From: Sarea resinae
Taxonomy: Eukaryota
DNA length: 64,000 bases
Direction: 5' to 3'
Assembly (NCBI GenBank): GCA_026026165.1
Contig: JAPEUD010000005.1
Coordinates: 372,001 to 436,000, forward strand
Shown here: positions 52,301-62,212 of the stretch, one piece after another
Position numbering within the stretch: position 1 is the stretch's first letter
Layout of the letters: every line of letters starts with the position of its first letter
Position numbers and translations under genes: made by a program
Notes under the pieces: model-generated
Told to the model about the DNA's origin: nothing
Databases searched by the model: none
The model's input: only the letters and a program-made list of their open reading frames with translations

Positions 52301-53748
52301 GCCGAGAAACTCTAGCGTAAGGCGGAAGAAGGCAAAGGTGCCACCACAGGGAAAGTGGAGGTCTGTGTGGGCTTATTGAATCTGACGATCTACGAGCGTA
52401 CAAGGTCAACATCGGCTCAATCGGGCAGAGCAGAGGCATGCGATTCAATCTCATGCCCATGCCATGATGCTGTCCGATGCCATGCTATTGCTATGTCGTA
52501 CCGCACGAGGCACCAGCATGCAGGCAGATACCTGCCCTGCACCCACTCACTCGACTCCGCGTAGACGATTGCATCCAGGATCTCAACTGCCACTGTAGCC
52601 AAGCCAGGCCAAGCCAAGCCATCTACCCACCATACCTGGTGCCCGTCGCAGAAGACATTCTCGCCCACCAACCCTGAAGACCAGGTTGAGCAGGAGACGG
52701 AGGAGCGAGGACCAAGAGGCCTCGGCTCACCTCTTGCCTTCTTCAACTCCAATCACCATACCTTCATCGAAAAGCAGAGGGGGCCTCTCCTAATCCATGC
52801 CCCCGCAGTACTCTGTCCTCTCCCTTCCCTACCTACCTACCTATTTCCCTCCAGGTTTTCCTAGCTACCTAGCTACCTAGCTACTTCCTTACAAACACAC
52901 ACGCCAGGCAGGCAGGCAGGCAGGCAGGCATCAGTTCGGCATGGAGGTAAGATGCAGACGCATGTGCCACATGGGATCCCAAACCCTAAACCGTAAGCCG
53001 TACACCACAAAATTAAAGTAGTAGTACTACTCCTACCTACCTACCTACCTTATTCAGTACCTTACCAGTAATACAGACTCGAGTTGGAGGGTTAGTACGC
53101 AAGTATGGTAGGGTATGGTATGGTATGGTATGGTATGATAGGGTAGGGGTAGGGTAAGGTATGGTAGGGGAATCATCACATACAGTAGTCGTATGTATGG
53201 TAGGTAGGTATGTAGTACAGCCCAGATCATGCAATTCGCACGCACTCCTGCACGCCTGCACGCCTGCACGCACGTACACATCACATACATCCATACATAC
53301 ATTAAATATATCCGCACATATCAAAACAATACAGATCTACATCGATACATTTCTACGGCCATCTGATACAACAATACTTACGGTACTATGAGTATACCGT
53401 ACACACCCAGGACAGGTTAAAAGAAGAGAAGGGAAGAGAAGAGAAAGCCTCACTTCTGCACCCCAGCTCCCTTCCTTCCCTCCCCTCCCCTCCTCTCCCG
53501 CTCCCCTCCTGCCAGCTTGCAGCTGGCCTTCAGCGCGCCCGGGGTATTTATACATAACAATGACAACGACAACAACGGCAACCCTAGTCCAGGTTCCTAG
53601 GGGGAGGAAGCTCCTTGAAAAACCCCTAGCCCTTGCACAGGAGAAGGGCATACGAGATCAGAAAAGAAAAAAATCCCCCACCCTCGACCTCTCTAGTTCT
53701 TTACCTACCTAGTTACCTACCTAGTTACCTACCTGTATTGTGTTGTAT

Positions 53749-53856
53749 TATAAGCTGTTAGCTATAAGCTGTTAGCTATAAGCTGTTAGCTATAAGCTGT
53801 TAGCTATAAGCTGTTAGCTATAAGCTGTTAGCTATAAGCTGTTAGCTATAAGCTGT
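53749..53856. repeat. 14-bp minisatellite (TATAAGCTGTTAGC), 7 full units plus a 10-bp partial unit
   Basis: Perfect head-to-tail units read directly; no spacers. Confidence 0.95.
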
Positions 53857-55475
53857 GGGTTTTACTCTATTTTATTTTATTCAGTTGATTTTAATTGATT
53901 TTAGTTTTCTATCTTGTTGTCGTATTTTATCATGTTGTATTGTGTTAAACAAGGATTAGGTTCTAGTTTTCTTGCTGCAGATGATATGTATGCACAGTGT
54001 TATTGATATCAAAATCAAAATCAGAGAGCAGAGTAAAGGAAGGTAGAGCAGACTAGATCACTAAAAAAACCAGACCAACTAAAGCACGGCTGCAGCTTGT
54101 GCTTCTTCTTCTTCTTCTTTTCCTCTTCTAGGAGGAGAAGCAGGCGGCCTGCTAGTCCGCCGTGGTCTGCTATAGGATCATAGATGTCTATCTATCTACC
54201 TATCTGTCCCTCTGTCCCTCTGTAGTCTATCTGTCCATCTGTCCATCTGTCTACCTACCTATCTACCTACCTCCCCACCTCTGCGCCTTGCCCTGCCGCA
54301 CCTCGCCCGTGTATAGCTATAGATTGACGTGAGAGCCAGATACATACGTTTGATGAAGTAAAACTCCAAGGACAGAGGAGGTCGTGAAGACGGCGGTCTG
54401 GCACGAGTAGGCAGGACAAGACGGGATGGGACAGATGAGATAGGATGGGTAAGGCTAGACCGCTCTGTCCATTTGAAGCCTCGACGACAAAAAGGAAAGC
54501 ATGAAGCACGAGACACAAAGCACACGAGTCAGGTGATGGGGGGAAATGGTTTGGTCGCCTGTAAACTTCGTATGTATGCATGTATGTATGCGCGGCTGAG
54601 CCGGGAGAAGAATGCCTCAAGAGCGCCAATGGAATCGTTTCCTAGAAGAATCTCTCGGATCGTCTCGTTCTGTCTCTCTTCTTGCCTGGTCCTTTGGTAG
54701 TGAAGCTCCAGCAGCAAAGGCAGACCAAAAGGCGACGTCATTAAAATACGAGTCACGTAGAAGATCTCGACCCGAACAGGAACGAATATGCTATAATCAC
54801 TGACCCAGAGACCGAAAGCCAAATCCGGACGAAAGTTAAAGAAACCGCCCACAAAACCCCCGCCGGATGCCAGAAAAAGCAAACGTTACGATAACAGACC
54901 CAGACCCAGACTCAAAACCACAAGAAAGTAATACAAAAAGCCGTGAACACAACGTCCATGATTCCAACTCGAGCCGATCAAGAACCTGCTCCCTGAGGAA
55001 AGAGAAAGCTCGATTGATAGTCTAGACGTCTCTGAATTCCGTACTTTTCGCATCCAACCTGGCGGGACGTACGAGTCAACTCGCCCAAGAACTTAAGAGG
55101 GCTCGATTGGACGGGGTCTCAGTACTCCAGTTCCTTCCCAATCCGTACTAAAATCCAAATTCCATATTCAAATCCACAATTTGGTCCCCCACCCCAATCG
55201 ATTCTACTTATCGGGAGCTATTCGGTCGAAGGACAGCTCAACCGATGAGGTCTCAGAATGAGGAGGGTCCCGCCAGGGGTCTTGTTCTGCCTATATGTAT
55301 CCATCTTCTTTAATGCTGCAATCTCTTTGTGACGATCCACATTGTGTGCGTGCTTGCGTGTGTGCGAGTTCCCCCAACGCCAATTTCACCCTTTCCTCGG
55401 AGCCACGCTTGTCCTCCAAATACCCAATTCTGAAAACCGACCATCAAACAAACAATAAAAGGATGAAGCTAGAGG

Positions 55476-56789
55476 TCAAGTTCTCTTGCGGAGAACGCGT
55501 CTACCAGTTGGTTGGGGATCCGGCTTTGCTGCCGCAGATGCAGCTTTTTTCGCAGCGGCGCCGCCAGCGGCAGTCTTCCTGGCAGCCGCAGTACTTGGGG
55601 CTTTCTTTAGAGCAGGTGCCTTTCTGGTTTTCGCTACCACAGTCGTGCCCGTTGATGAGGTCGAAGTTTGGCTGCTGTTGCTGGCCGTCCGATTGGTGGT
55701 CTTGGTCTCCTTGGCTGGTGCTGCATGCGTGGCACGTTTACCACGTGCTGTCGCCGTTGTCGCCGGCGCTGGTGCCGCTGGTGCAGCCTTCCGTGTCGTG
55801 GTTCTTGTCGTCCTTGCTGCTTTCCCTGCCACGCCTGCGAGAGCCTTGGTAGCAGCAGCTGCAGCATTGACCGATCCAGAAGCCTTGACAGGAGATGGTG
55901 CTGGGCGTGGGACGGCCATCCTCTCTGGAGACCCCGCGGCCTTGAAAGGTGAACGGGGAAGGGTTTGAGAGTTTGAGTTTTTCGGAGATAGGATTTCGGA
56001 ATGCGGCAATTTCGCTTTGGAGGCAGCTCGCTTTGGCGCGGGAGGGTTGGCGGCCGTTTTGGTCCGCTTTTTAGGCATTGAGAGCTCGTTCTGTGCGTTC
56101 TCTTTGTTTGCGTCTTCGAGATGGTCGCTACAAGGCAAAAGTTAGGGACATGCAAGACCGAAATATCGGTAGTCTGAAGAGGGCATACCTAGAACGCTTC
56201 ATGCCTCTAGTACGTGGTGGAGGTGGCATCTTTTTGGAGGTCACAGTCGCGTCTTCCTTTTCAGGTAGAGCTCCACTCATTATGGCCTTTTCATTCGCAT
56301 TCTCTGCAGACTTCGAGCGACTGGAAGCACCATTCGTGTCCGCTTGCGCGGCTTCCGCATATTTGACCAGTAACTCCCCCATATTCGCTTTCCGAAGGGC
56401 TATCGGTATACGATTAATGCGGATCTCGATTCGTGAGCGTAATCCTTGAGCTTGAAGAGAGTATTGAGCGCGTAATTTTCGCGCCCTCTCCGTTACTACT
56501 AGAAATTAGACCTAGGACGCGCTAGAAATCCGCGGACAGGATCCAGTTGCTGCAGCTGGAGAGCAAGGTACTCACCTTCCAATTGTAGATTATCAATCAA
56601 GGCCTGCTTTTGCGCTTGAGTGATTGTCATTGCGCGTTTTGAAGGACTTCGAATTGGTGTACGTGTACGTGCGGGGCTGCCAGTTTTGGTCGCGATCCTC
56701 GTTGGAGGAGCTGGAAAGTCGGCTAGGTCGGCACCAGCAGAGCTGGCAGAGCTGGCTGAGACCTTCTTCTTGCCCCTGAGAGGAGCCAT
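55476..56789 (-). CDS. Borealin-like (Nbl1/Borealin N-terminal domain) chromosomal passenger complex subunit
   Basis: Exons 56789-56576, ~56495-56189 (TAGTAG tandem acceptor), 56127-55476. QKQALIDNLQLEVTERARKLRAQY..LRSRIEIRINRIPIALRKANMGELL, then a basic A/T/K/P-rich tail with S/TP sites and KEN. Confidence 0.82.
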
Positions 56790-56899
56790 ACTGTCACTTG
56801 CTTTGATTGGACGCGTGGGAGGATTTTGTGTTGTATGAGGGCGTTGAAAGTGAAGATGATGGAGCGAGTGTCGAGGGTCGATTGTCGAGTCGAGAGTGA

Positions 56900-57018
56900 G
56901 AGGGCGCGAGTAAACAAAGGCGGAGCCGCATGGTGTCTTGGCAGGAACGTCAATGCCCAGCACCAATAGCCCACGTACCTTCCCGTAGCTGTATGGTAGA
57001 CAGTAAGCACCTCAACTG
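56900..57018 (+). repeat. 119-bp direct repeat, copy 1 (immediately upstream of the borealin-like gene)
   Basis: Ungapped hand alignment to 59894-60012 gives 102/119 identical. Contains GTAAACAAA (forkhead-type site) and a CCAAT. Confidence 0.93.
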
Positions 57019-57279
57019 TAGGTGAGCAACAGCCCTCCATACGGAGTAGATAAACACTGGCCTCAGGCTGTATCATATCCTGACGAGGCGATTTCAAGAG
57101 CGCGGCAGCCATCCAAATGCGCATAAAGCAGGGCTAGGATATTGACAATCATAGTTACTATGTCGCTAAATCTATGTAGTGGAAAGCTTTTCAATCACCC
57201 ATTCAATCCTTTTTGGTTCGCACGATATCTCTGCGGTCACCCGTTAAAGATCCCAACAACCTTTCTTTATCCCTTCTTC

Positions 57280-59194
57280 TTACCGAGCATCAAACGGCCG
57301 TAACCGCTCGGCTCTATCTTCCGTCATCGTTTCATCCGTATGCGCTGCCTCGAGCCATGTCTTGTATGCTGCCCGATGTGCTTCCTGCGCATCGTCCCAC
57401 AGCTCGATAGGGATCCAACCATCAGAATTGGTGCCCAGAGAGTTCATGAGCCACAACTTCAGTTTTTGCACGGCATCGAAATCTTCCCATTGGCGTGCAT
57501 GTTCTTTGAGCTCTGCTTCTGTCGGCGAGTATGGACACGAGCCGTCTAGTCCGGCTTCGTTCCAGCAAGCCGCGAGTTCCATCAGTTCCTGGCGGATGGC
57601 TGGTATCCCCTCTCGCCATGATGTGTAGCAATAGTGGAACGGGCGGAACAAGGATTGATCAAGAATGAACGCTGGTTTCAATTTTGGTGCTCTGCCTTTC
57701 ATACATGTCTCATAACCTTGGTTGCATATTCTCCTGTCCTTCTCTAGCCGTGCTTGGTCTGGATCCTGCAATGTACCTTCAGTATCACCATTACCTTGAG
57801 TCACAGGCGGAAGTGCGGCGAAGTCGGGAAATTCGTTAGAGTAGATGAATGCAGGTTCGATGCTTGCCGACTGCCAGTCGATCAAACCCGTGATCTTCGT
57901 GGGATCATCTGGGGAGACATATATGTTTCTTTTGTTCAAATCTGCATGAACCAACGCTGGCGTAGCCGCATCTCGGATACGCGGTTCCTGAATCAGCCGT
58001 TCGAGAACCTCTTGACTGGCTTTCAGTAAACGAATGTGTTCCTCGACGGATTCGCAGTAGATGGGATGCCGTTCTATGCCAGACGATTTTTTTGGTAGAC
58101 GCGAAAAGCCTGTTTCAATTAGACCCGAGCAGTACTGGCCTAGACTCTTCCCTGCTCATTGAAAGCGGATTAGCTTCCTAGAAATCATTGATAAGGACCG
58201 GCATTTATTGGCTTACATGGTCCACGATTCGGGCTCGGGCCTCCATAGAGGTCGGGTTCGCCAGGGTTGCAATTAGAGAACACAGATCCACAATGAGGAC
58301 CTATACAGTATTCTTCATCAAAGAAAATCTTGAGGCCGGGATCAATTGGCGCATCTGCAAAATATAGACTCCCATAGGCTGGAAAGCTCAAAGCGGCCAT
58401 CTCTGCGACTTGATTGGCAATGGCTACTGTGCATCGTAAGTGCTGGAGTGTATCCATCTCGGGCCAGTGTTCTTGAAGATTCAAGCCATCCACGTGCTCC
58501 TGCAGGATATACTCTGTACGCGCTGAGTTAGAAGCATCATCGCTCCAATCGATAACTCTGGGGATCGGGACGGAAGTGCGAGCTCTGACTGTTGAGACGG
58601 TGGTATATCAGTTGATGTCATCTGAAACTCGGACGCATAGATCTATGACCTACGATACGATATGGTGGCGACCTCCGAGTTTGTTGTCAAGGTCGATGGT
58701 CCTGCAATCCTTGTAGGTATTCGAGCCACGATACGGGCACCCGTGTCCATGGTCATGATGAAGACTTTGTTGAAACCTCCCTCTTTCTTCCGGTATGATA
58801 TGACTTTGGTCGCTCCCGGACAGTTCTTGACCGCAATCTGGCAAAGCGCCTCGAAATCAAATGCGACATATCGAGATTCCCGTTGGAGGAAGTCCCGGTG
58901 AAGCCATCTTCCACTTGTGTAAGCATAGGGATCGCGTACTGATGGGAATAAGCGTGAGCAGGAGTCCCTCACAAGGCAGGGCATTCACGAACGTCTGTGT
59001 TCTGCAAGTATGGTGGACTGTTTGCGAGATGAGGAAGATAATGAGCGCTCAGAAGCAACTGAACTCTGTTTGCCTCCCATCCTGCGTAACACCGGTTGGT
59101 AAGAAAATGAGAGTGAACGCAGGGCTATATTTCGACGTTGGGTGGTTCGGAAGCCTTGACTTAAAAGGTCTGCTGGGCTGATTCCCTTCGCCAT
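57280..59194 (-). CDS. APH/choline-kinase-like phosphotransferase (Aim9-like family), possibly mitochondrial
   Basis: Exons ~59194-58993 (start uncertain, alternative ATG 59080), 58938-58654, 58588-58217, 58151-57280, all in frame. YTSGRWL, EGGFNKVF, VARIP, NSEVAT, catalytic HADLNKRNI, metal-binding IDWQ, DGWIP. Confidence 0.88.
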
Positions 59195-59893
59195 TCGAAT
59201 ATGCCAGAAACACTCGGACCAGCCTTGGCTAGCAACAGTTTCTGGATATCTTGGGAGATCTAGGCACCCACAATTCTTCCCTGGTATTCCACGGCCAAAT
59301 TCCGTATACAACGCCGCTTAGGGATGTCTGGGAGTAAGCCAAAAAGAGGTTATGGCAATAGGTGCCGCTTTGGGGATGCTCTCGCCACCAGTCCTTGAAG
59401 CTGGGTCCGGCTGGATGTGATAATCGGCCCCTGAGCTCAGCCAGGACCAAGAGCTTTACCGAATCCGATTACTCTGATACAGACTTCGGTTCGTGGATCA
59501 TATGGACGCATTCTGAGGGCATGAACGGGAGCTCGAGGGTGATGATAAGAATTGTCTTTCTTGCATACAATTCCATGAATCAGAGATCAAGCAGTCGTAT
59601 TCTCAAGTGTATCTCGCTGAATGCGGACGGTATCCACTGTCCATAAAATTAAGCACTAGATAGTTTGATCCCTCTTGCTTGCATCACAATCTGAGCATCC
59701 TATCTCTGGATAGGATTGTCCTACCCTCCAGGCTACGAGCGTAGTCACCCGGTCACCGGCGGTTAAGAAAGGTCGAGTGGAAATTGGGATCAGTACAATG
59801 CGCAGGCGGAGACGCAATTCAGCAATTGGCGGGGCCTGATGTATCCGATCACGTCTGAGATATGGGAGATTTGAGTCGCCCAGGTGAAGTGGT

Positions 59894-60012
59894 GAGGGCA
59901 CGAGTAAACAAAGGCGGAGCCGCACGATGGCTTGGCGGGAACGTCAAGGCTCAACACCAGTAGCTTACGTACCGCACCGTAGCCGTATGGTAGACAATAG
60001 GCACCTCAACTG
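59894..60012 (+). repeat. 119-bp direct repeat, copy 2 (upstream of rpn10)
   Basis: Same orientation as 56900-57018, 17 substitutions, no indels; 24-bp identical core CGAGTAAACAAAGGCGGAGCCGCA. Confidence 0.93.
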
Positions 60013-60189
60013 CTTGCCTCTACCGCCATCATCAACCTCCAGGGCTACACATTACATAGCGTACAACGTCCGTCTTACTGTCTTCATATCCTAAGCGGCC
60101 ATCTCCTGTAGTCCATCTCTCGAAAGACCATCTTCTCGACCTACCTTTCTCCTATTCACAATCTCTCGGCCCGCGGGGATCTCGCCAAG

Positions 60190-61288
60190 ATGGGCCTCGA
60201 AGCAACTATGATTGTGTATGTGCAGCTGTATCTACCCAGCTTCTCAGGATTCCAAGCTGATAACATGGATCTACAGCATCGACAACAGTGAGAGCAGTAG
60301 AAATGGCGACTATGTGTATGTCACATGCTTCCCGCGGCTCACCTGCTCTTTGAATCCGCATTTACTTATCCTTTTCATCTACAGGCCCTCACGATTCGAG
60401 GCGCAGTGTGACGCTGTCAACCTCATCTTCTCCGCAAAGACGCAAGCAAATCCAGAATCCTCGGTCGGCCTTATGAGCATGGGGGGCAAAGGGCCGGAAG
60501 TGCTAGTGACACTGACGACCGACTTTGGGAAGGTCTTGGACGGGCTTCACCGGACAAAGATAAGAGGCGACACGCACTTGGCCACGGGGATACAGGTTGC
60601 AGGCGTACGTTACCAGCTTTGGATTTTCTGAACTCACTTGCTGACGAGCATTCCCTCATCATAGCTTGCGCTCAAGCATCGTCAAAACAAGTCCCAACGA
60701 CAACGTATAATAGTCTTCAACTGCTCGCCGATTCAAGAGGATGAGAAGACACTTGTTCGACTAGCGAAGAAGATGAAGAAGAACAACATATCGATCGACT
60801 TCATCGCATTCGGCGAACTCGAGGATGAGAATACCAAGAAGCTGGAAGCGTTCAACGAGAACGTCAAGGGTGGCGATGGCTCACATCTGGCAATCATCCC
60901 TCCTGGTCCGAACCTTCTCAGTGACAACCTTATCACCACCCCAATCCTTGCTGGGGATGGCGTAGGAGGCGGTGCTGGGATGGGCAGTGCGGGCACTGAA
61001 GGTGGAGAAAGCGGTGGGAATCAATTCGAGTTCGGTGTTGACCCATCTATGGATCCTGAGCTCGCACTTGCTCTAAGGATGAGCTTCGAAGAAGAAAAGG
61101 CGAGGCAGGACAAGGAGAAGCGCGAAAAGGAAGAGAAGGAGGGAAAGGAAAACCTGGAAGGTATCAAGGAAGAGGAAGAGGCCCAGCCACTGCTGGACAA
61201 GCAGGGTGAAGCGAGTGGCAGTGGGAGCCGGGAAGATGACGACAAGAAGGATCAGAACGATGGCGGAGATAAGATGGACACAGCATGA
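60190..61288 (+). CDS. rpn10: 26S proteasome regulatory subunit Rpn10
   Basis: Exons 60190-60215, 60277-60315, 60385-60604, 60665-61288. vWA domain (MGLEATMIVIDNSESSRNGDY, NPESSVGLMSMGG, LALKHRQNKSQRQRII) and UIM (FGVDPSMDPELALALRMS). Confidence 0.96.
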
Positions 61289-61556
61289 GAGCACTTTTTG
61301 CGGCAAAGGTCTGGCTGCATTATTGGCGTTTCCGATGTATCATACGTAATGAGGATCTTGAGGTTAGAGCTTTCTGCAGAGCTGGTGGCTCGCAGAACCA
61401 ATCTGTTTGCATACTCTATCGTCATGACTTATCGCAAGAATTATCATCTTATATTTGTGCACGCTTGCGTAAACGCCTACCCCTTTCCAAAACGCCAGAC
61501 TCGATGCAGATATACTCAAAGCACCCTTCTTTTTCGCATTCCATCGCCCCTTTCGG

Positions 61557-62212
61557 CTACTGCCTTGGCTTGATATAACTCCCCAGATGGCGATCAAAAG
61601 CCTCACATCTGATCGGCATCTCGATCTGATAGAACGGGTTCTTCATGACGAAATCGGCGTACAGCTCATAGACCCTCCGGATGATGACATCGACATTCGG
61701 CTGGTGCGGCTCCGTGAAGAGCAGGAATTTCGTGCCGGTGAGCGTCTGGAAGCATTGCATGCGGAACTTCTCCGTCTCCATGACCTCGATGCCTGTGGTT
61801 GGATTCCCGGGCGTGCGTGGCAGGGGACAGAGACCTTTGGCTATTGCGTGGACGCTTTGTAGAGTAAAGTTTTAGCCTTTGGGGATTGCGTCTGTGGGGG
61901 GGGAATGAATGCAAAAGGGGGGCCGGGAAACATCAACAGCTTCAGCGATATCATATCGCATTCGAGATTTCTAAATGCAAGCATTGCCAAAGAAAGAAGA
62001 ACGGCGCTTGCAAACAGAGACATACCCATGAAAGGTTCCCGCTAGAACGAGATAGTCGTTGATGCTGAGCTTATTCAGTCCGTCATGGAAATCGCGCTGG
62101 TAGATTAAGCCTCCGGCTTTGTTGATGATGATGAGCGCGAAGACGACCCTAATTCGATTGCGTTAGCCCCCAGTACATATTATTCTTAAATAGGGCAGCT
62201 ATTTACGGACAT
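61557..62212 (-). CDS. trs23: TRAPP complex subunit Trs23 (sybindin family)
   Basis: Coding exons 62212-62211 (AT), 62148-62026, 61854-61557. MVVFALIIINKAGGLIY, NDYLVLAGTFHGVHAI, FQTLTGTKFLL, YADFVMKNPFY..MPIRCEAFD. Confidence 0.92.

Follow-up and report, generated by a model that had tools for sequence, protein, structure and literature searches.

The window analysed here is a 64,000-nucleotide stretch of the genome of Sarea resinae, a fungus that lives on resin (GenBank assembly GCA_026026165.1, contig JAPEUD010000005.1, positions 372,001 to 436,000 of the forward strand). Within it, two core genes, borealin/Nbl1 and rpn10, the latter encoding a ubiquitin receptor of the proteasome, point away from each other and are separated by a 2875-bp insert (57019-59893) that carries an APH/Aim9-like phosphotransferase gene and is bracketed by a pair of direct repeats (Table 1). 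Exon 2 of borealin is 100% identical to protein P0151 (M1819_004956, PF10444) and the last exon of rpn10 is 100% identical to protein P0031 (M1819_004958), both labelled Sarea resinae, and these two locus tags of the host place one gene between borealin and rpn10. To the left of borealin, positions 52800-54300 are AT-richer and hold a 14-bp tandem array (about eight copies, 53735-53888) together with several tetra- and pentanucleotide repeats.

Table 1. Features of the borealin-rpn10 locus, in window coordinates
Feature	Position	Strand	Remarks
Borealin/Nbl1 gene, left core gene	55476..56789	-	390 aa; PF10444
Repeat copy 1 (borealin side)	56900..57018	+	GTAAACA at 56910-56916
Possible decayed continuation of the duplication (tentative)	57019..57095	+	resembles 60013-60105
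APH/Aim9-like phosphotransferase gene	57280..59194	-	4 exons, 576 aa, intact
Exons of the APH gene	59194-58993, 58938-58654, 58588-58217, 58151-57280	-	GT-AG introns
Upstream region of the APH gene	59195..59893		699 bp, single-copy
Repeat copy 2 (rpn10 side)	59894..60012	+	GTAAACA at 59904-59910
rpn10, proteasome ubiquitin receptor, right core gene	60190..61288	+	VWA domain; Pfam VWA_2

Four public sequencing runs were examined. In the one DNA run that covers the locus, positions 55000-62000 fall within a single 8.5-kb contig of even depth that shows neither differences nor joints. No sign of an empty allele appeared in that run. Since it may itself be the source of the assembly, this run argues against misassembly without being independent evidence. 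An assembly artefact is nevertheless hardly credible, as the two repeat copies differ at 17 positions and the insert holds an intact gene. A public RNA run yielded a 99%-identical contig over the 3' part of rpn10 only; no RNA contig covers the APH gene, and such missing cover proves nothing about its expression.

The ancestral borealin-rpn10 spacer

The borealin start codon (ATG at 56789) lies 110 bp from copy 1 of the repeat and that of rpn10 (60190) lies 177 bp from copy 2, both distances as originally predicted, and removal of the insert and one repeat copy leaves 406 bp between the start codons, in line with a predicted spacer of about 400 bp. A further divergent pair, which we take to be trs23/rpb4, was said to have a spacer of about 450 bp, and it measures approximately 446 bp.

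The arrangement in other fungi was examined in two ways. Locus tags drawn from the best 120 matches each for rpn10 and borealin showed the two genes to be consecutive in all six other annotated assemblies in which both tags were visible, namely Trichoglossum hirsutum (two assemblies), Glutinoglossum americanum, Circinaria calcarea, Acarospora aff. strigata and Venustampulla echinocandica. In addition, a metagenome scan with Rpn10 gave 138 confirmed loci, the best 80 of which were taken. Borealin lies head-to-head within 1 kb of rpn10 at 39 of these 80 loci and further off at 7; at 9 no borealin was found within an upstream sequence of at least 1.5 kb, and 25 were too short. When loci were grouped into lineages at 90% DNA identity (n=47), the corresponding counts were 24 within 1 kb, 3 further off, 5 with none and 15 too short, so that the head-to-head arrangement within 1 kb is present in 24/32 informative lineages. 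One of the five lineages scored as lacking borealin, L042, has a borealin-like frame upstream that falls below the detection threshold; this divergent gene, which adjoins rpn10, contains a 175-bp tandem duplication (L042:6611-6950, 97% identical). No APH gene is present at any of the 80 metagenome rpn10 loci examined.

The adjacency of borealin and rpn10 in relatives implies that the head-to-head pair is ancestral and that the APH gene is an insertion. Thus, on comparative sequence grounds, the predicted insertion of an accessory gene into the spacer of two ancestrally head-to-head core genes is borne out by annotated assemblies and metagenome lineages alike. Conserved head-to-head genes within about 1 kb, the arrangement by which a bidirectional promoter is recognised, are what the ancestral state presents.

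The direct repeats as duplicated promoter-region DNA

The repeat was predicted to be 119 bp long and ungapped, with 102/119 positions identical and the differences made up of 13 transitions and 4 transversions, and each of these figures was recovered. In a self-BLAST of the window the pair has an E-value of 9e-33 and is, among the matches listed, the sole repeat that is not a microsatellite. A search of the genome (25.5 Mb, 143 contigs) with the repeat found two places only, both at this locus, and a 22-nt pattern of the repeat core with up to three mismatches found both copies and one additional match at three mismatches; as a control pattern also gave one match, the additional one is at chance level. 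The two-copy count and the pattern search together rule out a dispersed repeat. A survey of 60 non-adjacent 10-kb stretches of the genome and of six 9.9-kb loci of APH paralogues, 659 kb in total or about 2.6% of the genome, gave no comparable direct repeat (at least 40 bp, copies at least 500 bp apart, E-value of at most 1e-4); a positive control was recovered, and old repeats would escape detection.

What links these copies to the core genes is the heptamer GTAAACA, presumably a forkhead-type site, which begins 10 bp into each copy and, in copy 1, lies 121 bp from the borealin ATG. In the same strand orientation as in the window, GTAAACA is present in 21/28 uninterrupted borealin-rpn10 spacers, as against 0.6 expected from composition-matched sequences; the 28 were taken from 39 such spacers by dropping most near-duplicates, and some are still related. 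Forkhead-type sites are typical of mitotic genes. The presence of the motif in both copies and at these empty sites identifies the repeat as duplicated promoter-region DNA of the host, in agreement with the original prediction. At the distances of the relatives compared, only GTAAACA and nearby letters of the repeat are conserved at empty sites. A third forkhead-like site, ATAAACA, is present at 57050-57056, 32 bp to the right of copy 1, and has no counterpart at the matching position beside copy 2. In a weak, post hoc comparison with another motif, one that lies near rpn10 in eight related spacers, copy 2 was the closer of the two copies (p 0.03-0.29). A conserved block of approximately 20 nt upstream of rpn10, CCAGGCTGAAC followed by CCTTACG or a variant of it, is shared by eight related spacers (L045, L046, L048, L050, L055, L058, L063 and L081), and this CCAGGCTGAAC block is a candidate regulatory element of rpn10.

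The two copies are 14% diverged (K2P distance 0.16), and the longest perfect run they share is 24 bp. Transitions are balanced between them (6 vs 7) and GC content is unchanged, so there is no RIP pattern, and RIP was rejected as a source of the differences. Clustering of the mismatches is not significant (p 0.08-0.8), and the pattern offers no significant evidence that the core has been under selection. A structured or known RNA of 119 nt was also considered and rejected, as Rfam gave nothing at E-values up to 1 and folding z-scores lay between -0.56 and 0.66.

The left edge of the repeat is sharp. On the right, an alignment anchored at the repeat pairs about 77 bp beside copy 1 with 93 bp of the rpn10 leader (p approximately 0.013 under two nulls, for one of two sides tested); an unanchored alignment gives p 0.13. 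On the strength of this possible extension, the original duplication may have been closer to 200 bp than to 119 bp.

The inserted gene and its family

The inserted gene was described at the outset as intact and APH/Aim9-like, and its four exons, Pfam domain and preserved catalytic motifs agree with this. The reading frame runs through 576 codons with no internal stop; Pfam APH (PF01636) matches the last exon at 34.3 bits against a cut-off of 23.2; and the kinase-fold motifs HxDxxxxN and DW are intact as HADLNKRN at residue 355 and LIDWQ at residue 376, which align with those of homologues and which we assume to be the catalytic motifs. The product is predicted to be a phosphotransferase of the APH/Aim9-like type. 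Since three introns are retained, retroposition of a spliced mRNA is ruled out. Relative to copy 2 the gene has the orientation of borealin, with its start 699 bp away, and it could use the promoter in copy 2. These 699 bp contain a 79-aa frame with no other match in the genome, and a second gene in this region was rejected after this one frame was tested. By tblastn the insert holds no coding remnant of borealin or rpn10 (best E 0.096); a DNA alignment to the middle of rpn10 (p 0.01), one of six tests, was out of register and was taken as chance.

The insert is single-copy in the genome and has no terminal inverted repeat, and no transposase-like frame, recombinase or nuclease was found in it, which upholds the original statement that hallmarks of an element are missing. 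Direct repeats around a cargo gene are superficially LTR-like, and the locus might on that account be seen as what is left of a transposable element that brought the gene in, whether one with LTR-like repeats, a non-autonomous DNA element or a Starship remnant. We regard such a relic as very improbable, as the repeat is host DNA whose motif is conserved across fungi at the empty site, is present in two copies only, lacks TG...CA ends and inverted termini, and shows no RIP pattern in its balanced transitions.

Of 2702 candidates scored, 27 homologues of the gene are longer than 506 residues; the best of these come from Xylona, Aspergillus, Penicillium and Onygenales, with 53-59% identity. The wider family comprises 606 representatives at E up to 1e-30. 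The gene thus shares its domain, catalytic motifs and this degree of identity with fungal APH/Aim9-like proteins (PF01636), and differs from them as an outlying long branch. No APH relative with DNA context was found in the viral or prokaryotic collections. A phylogeny including the paralogues, as had been proposed, was computed. The nearest of six paralogous loci in the genome, C79, is only 44% identical and belongs to another clade; the window's gene itself is placed beside the main clade with a weak support of 0.50. The paralogue C52 was too fragmentary to be included. C79 (L010:3865-5439) has an in-frame TGA in its kinase domain and is probably a pseudogene. None of the six paralogue loci has flanking repeats. 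With no parent copy in the genome, the gene would either have relocated with loss of its old site or have come from another fungus.

The window's gene deviates at 26/163 columns that are nearly invariant in the main clade, which may reflect distance or relaxed selection. Members of this main clade (P0004-P0023) are 70-84% identical across Xylonomycetes, Eurotiales, Onygenales and Leotiomycetes, and their tree is discordant with taxonomy: Xylona and Penicillium alfredii share 83%, Histoplasma and Aspergillus multicolor 83%, and Pseudogymnoascus and Penicillium coprophilum 77%. As a yardstick, identity between the Rpn10 query and an Onygenales protein is 69%, in a comparison that involves a different pair of species. 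In this small sample, the pattern suggests repeated horizontal transfer within the family.

Such mobility would bear on a further explanation, in which a circle or fragment carrying both the APH gene and the homologous target sequence of a related lineage recombined into the resident target; the 14% difference between the copies would then partly reflect donor and recipient alleles rather than age. A mechanism of this type has been proposed for Arabidopsis genes of like anatomy, as set out in the portion of that study drawn on here (Woodhouse et al. 2010, PMC2869330), and the cross-class identity and taxonomy-ignoring tree of the related clade are compatible with it. Against it, the donor gene must already have adjoined this promoter, which merely shifts the problem back; flanking repeats were found at 0/6 paralogue loci, the insert has no recombinase or nuclease, and an APH gene was found at 0/80 metagenome rpn10 loci. 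We consider it quite unlikely. In its strong form, this explanation makes the APH subfamily a family of mobile cassettes that integrate with long host-derived repeats. The 70-84% identity across classes, the taxonomy-discordant neighbouring clade and this one insertion footprint lead to the speculative reading, to which we assign little probability, that these are horizontally travelling, transposase-free cassettes of filamentous fungi that enter open promoter regions and copy 100-200 bp of the target to both sides, the present locus being an aged example.

Origin and tolerance of the insertion

Three other lineages have unrelated inserts of 1.7-5.8 kb in the borealin-rpn10 spacer. In the L021 group (L021:4402-8001; also L022-L025 and L027) the spacer is 3.4-3.6 kb and contains a frame resembling PD-(D/E)XK or DUF7924 proteins, an assignment that is an atlas lead only (score 0.91). 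Only L021 carries, in addition, an inverted repeat of 39 bp (4876-4914/4984-5022), which may be a small element. L085 (5253-6982) and L088 (6074-8001) have a 1.7-1.9 kb insert with a GNAT-like frame, and L086 (2194-8001) and L089 have a 5.8 kb insert with an O-methyltransferase; the fungi carrying these two inserts are related, being about 85% identical near rpn10. That these related fungi carry different inserts suggests that the spacer is a recurrent landing site. No significant flanking repeat was found in any of the three lineages, and their insertions may be older, with repeats decayed beyond detection. The L021 group has two GTAAACA sites with no alignable flanks, and tests for an ancient duplication there were not significant (p 0.09-0.12 local, 0.62-0.77 anchored). 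In the GNAT-like and O-methyltransferase lineages, GTAAACA is present about 150 bp from borealin and absent near rpn10. Its confinement to the borealin side in two split lineages suggests that borealin and rpn10 may have separable promoters, placed back to back in the spacer.

The original prediction held that the insertion was tolerated because the promoter had been duplicated. This claim is weakened by the three lineages in which the spacer holds an insert and no flanking repeat can be detected, since the spacer can evidently be split without a lasting duplication.

The locus is best read as an old, one-off insertion, made without a transposon in the course of break repair that duplicated the target site. 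In the ancestral layout, borealin and rpn10 would have been separated by 110 bp, the 119-bp target T and 177 bp, about 406 bp in all; their adjacency is observed in relatives, and the exact length is reconstructed. A genomic, intron-containing APH/Aim9-like copy would then have been captured when this open promoter region suffered a break or a stalled fork and was repaired. We consider it reasonably probable that the capture included a template switch that copied T: repair synthesis would have run through T (119 bp, or perhaps about 200), jumped to the foreign template and come back in at the beginning of T, which leaves the layout A-T-insert-T-B. The geometry places one copy of T beside the start of each core gene, where it would have continued to function; as each gene keeps its own copy, neither would have lost its promoter. 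The duplication would thus be a by-product that made this particular breakpoint harmless and not a general requirement for tolerance. Template switching by FoSTeS/MMBIR and synthesis-dependent capture at breaks produce templated insertions at tandem-duplication junctions, and with them the A-T-insert-T-B order without a transposase. Such insertions are usually recognised by junction microhomology to the donor; the likeness of the present locus to them is one of layout alone.

Two separate steps could have left the same layout: a tandem duplication of the promoter, perhaps including the start of rpn10, and a later insertion of the APH gene by ordinary end joining into the redundant DNA between the copies, which could have taken it up without harm. 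The stretch beside copy 1 that may be a decayed match to the rpn10 leader would accord with this sequence of events, as does the entry of unrelated genes into the spacer in three other lineages. It nevertheless calls for two rare events at one spot, with no other such repeat in the 659 kb surveyed, and the insert retains no coding remnant of borealin or rpn10; on balance we judge it unlikely. Should the right-hand extension be real, the original duplication would have been longer and a two-step history would fit the alignment equally well.

After capture by repair, the copies would have drifted 14% apart and the cassette would now be effectively fixed. Excision by recombination between the repeats, also raised in the original prediction, is possible in principle. 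It is unlikely today, given the 14% divergence and the lack of an empty allele in the run covering the locus; moreover, mismatch repair suppresses recombination between diverged repeats, and the longest perfect match here is 24 bp.

The anatomy of the locus has its closest precedent in plants. In the part of their study considered here, Woodhouse et al. (2010, PMC2869330) report Arabidopsis genes that have transposed and now lie between direct repeats. In 13/18 cases in which these repeats exceed 30 bp, the repeated host sequence occurs once at the empty orthologous site, and both circle integration and a long duplication of the target are put forward to explain this. Here too, a gene that is not a transposon occupies a new site, relatives lack it at the orthologous position, and it is flanked by direct repeats above 30 bp (119 bp). 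It differs in being fungal and in that the repeat is promoter-region DNA of divergent core genes, whereas theirs are mostly genic. No parent copy was found in this genome, where the nearest paralogue is 44% identical and repeat-free, and no tandem array is known; the same part of that study also lists genes without a parent, so that one is not required there. Single, species-specific "intervening genes" in yeast synteny blocks, some horizontally acquired by a mechanism that is unclear according to the sections consulted (Rolland et al. 2009, PMC2715888), resemble the APH gene in lying singly between conserved neighbours and differ from it, as far as those sections go, in that a long target duplication is present here and the relatives of the cargo are fungal, not bacterial. 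WHO elements, as outlined in the corresponding excerpt (Coughlan et al. 2020, PMC7282813), encode endonucleases, and the host DNA that they duplicate is the 3' end of FBA1. As in that outline, a cargo gene lies next to a second copy of part of an essential host locus whose gene stays functional; here, unlike there, the cargo is kinase-like, the duplicated DNA is promoter DNA, and there is no endonuclease and no sign of homing. In the open-access literature we found no publication that deals with this locus or with repeats of this kind beside fungal APH genes, and none that reports the same anatomy in fungi or mobility of the family.

The locus preserves genuine and uncommon traces of gene movement, of an anatomy already described in plants. 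In filamentous fungi, accessory genes often lie singly between conserved genes and seldom show how they arrived. Here the trace can still be read, as a long duplication of the target without a transposon. The borealin-rpn10 spacer, with four independent insertions of which only the present one has a detectable duplication, forms a natural comparison set that bears on how essential head-to-head promoters tolerate insertions. By itself the locus is one case, and it would matter much more if the scattered APH subfamily regularly carries such repeats.
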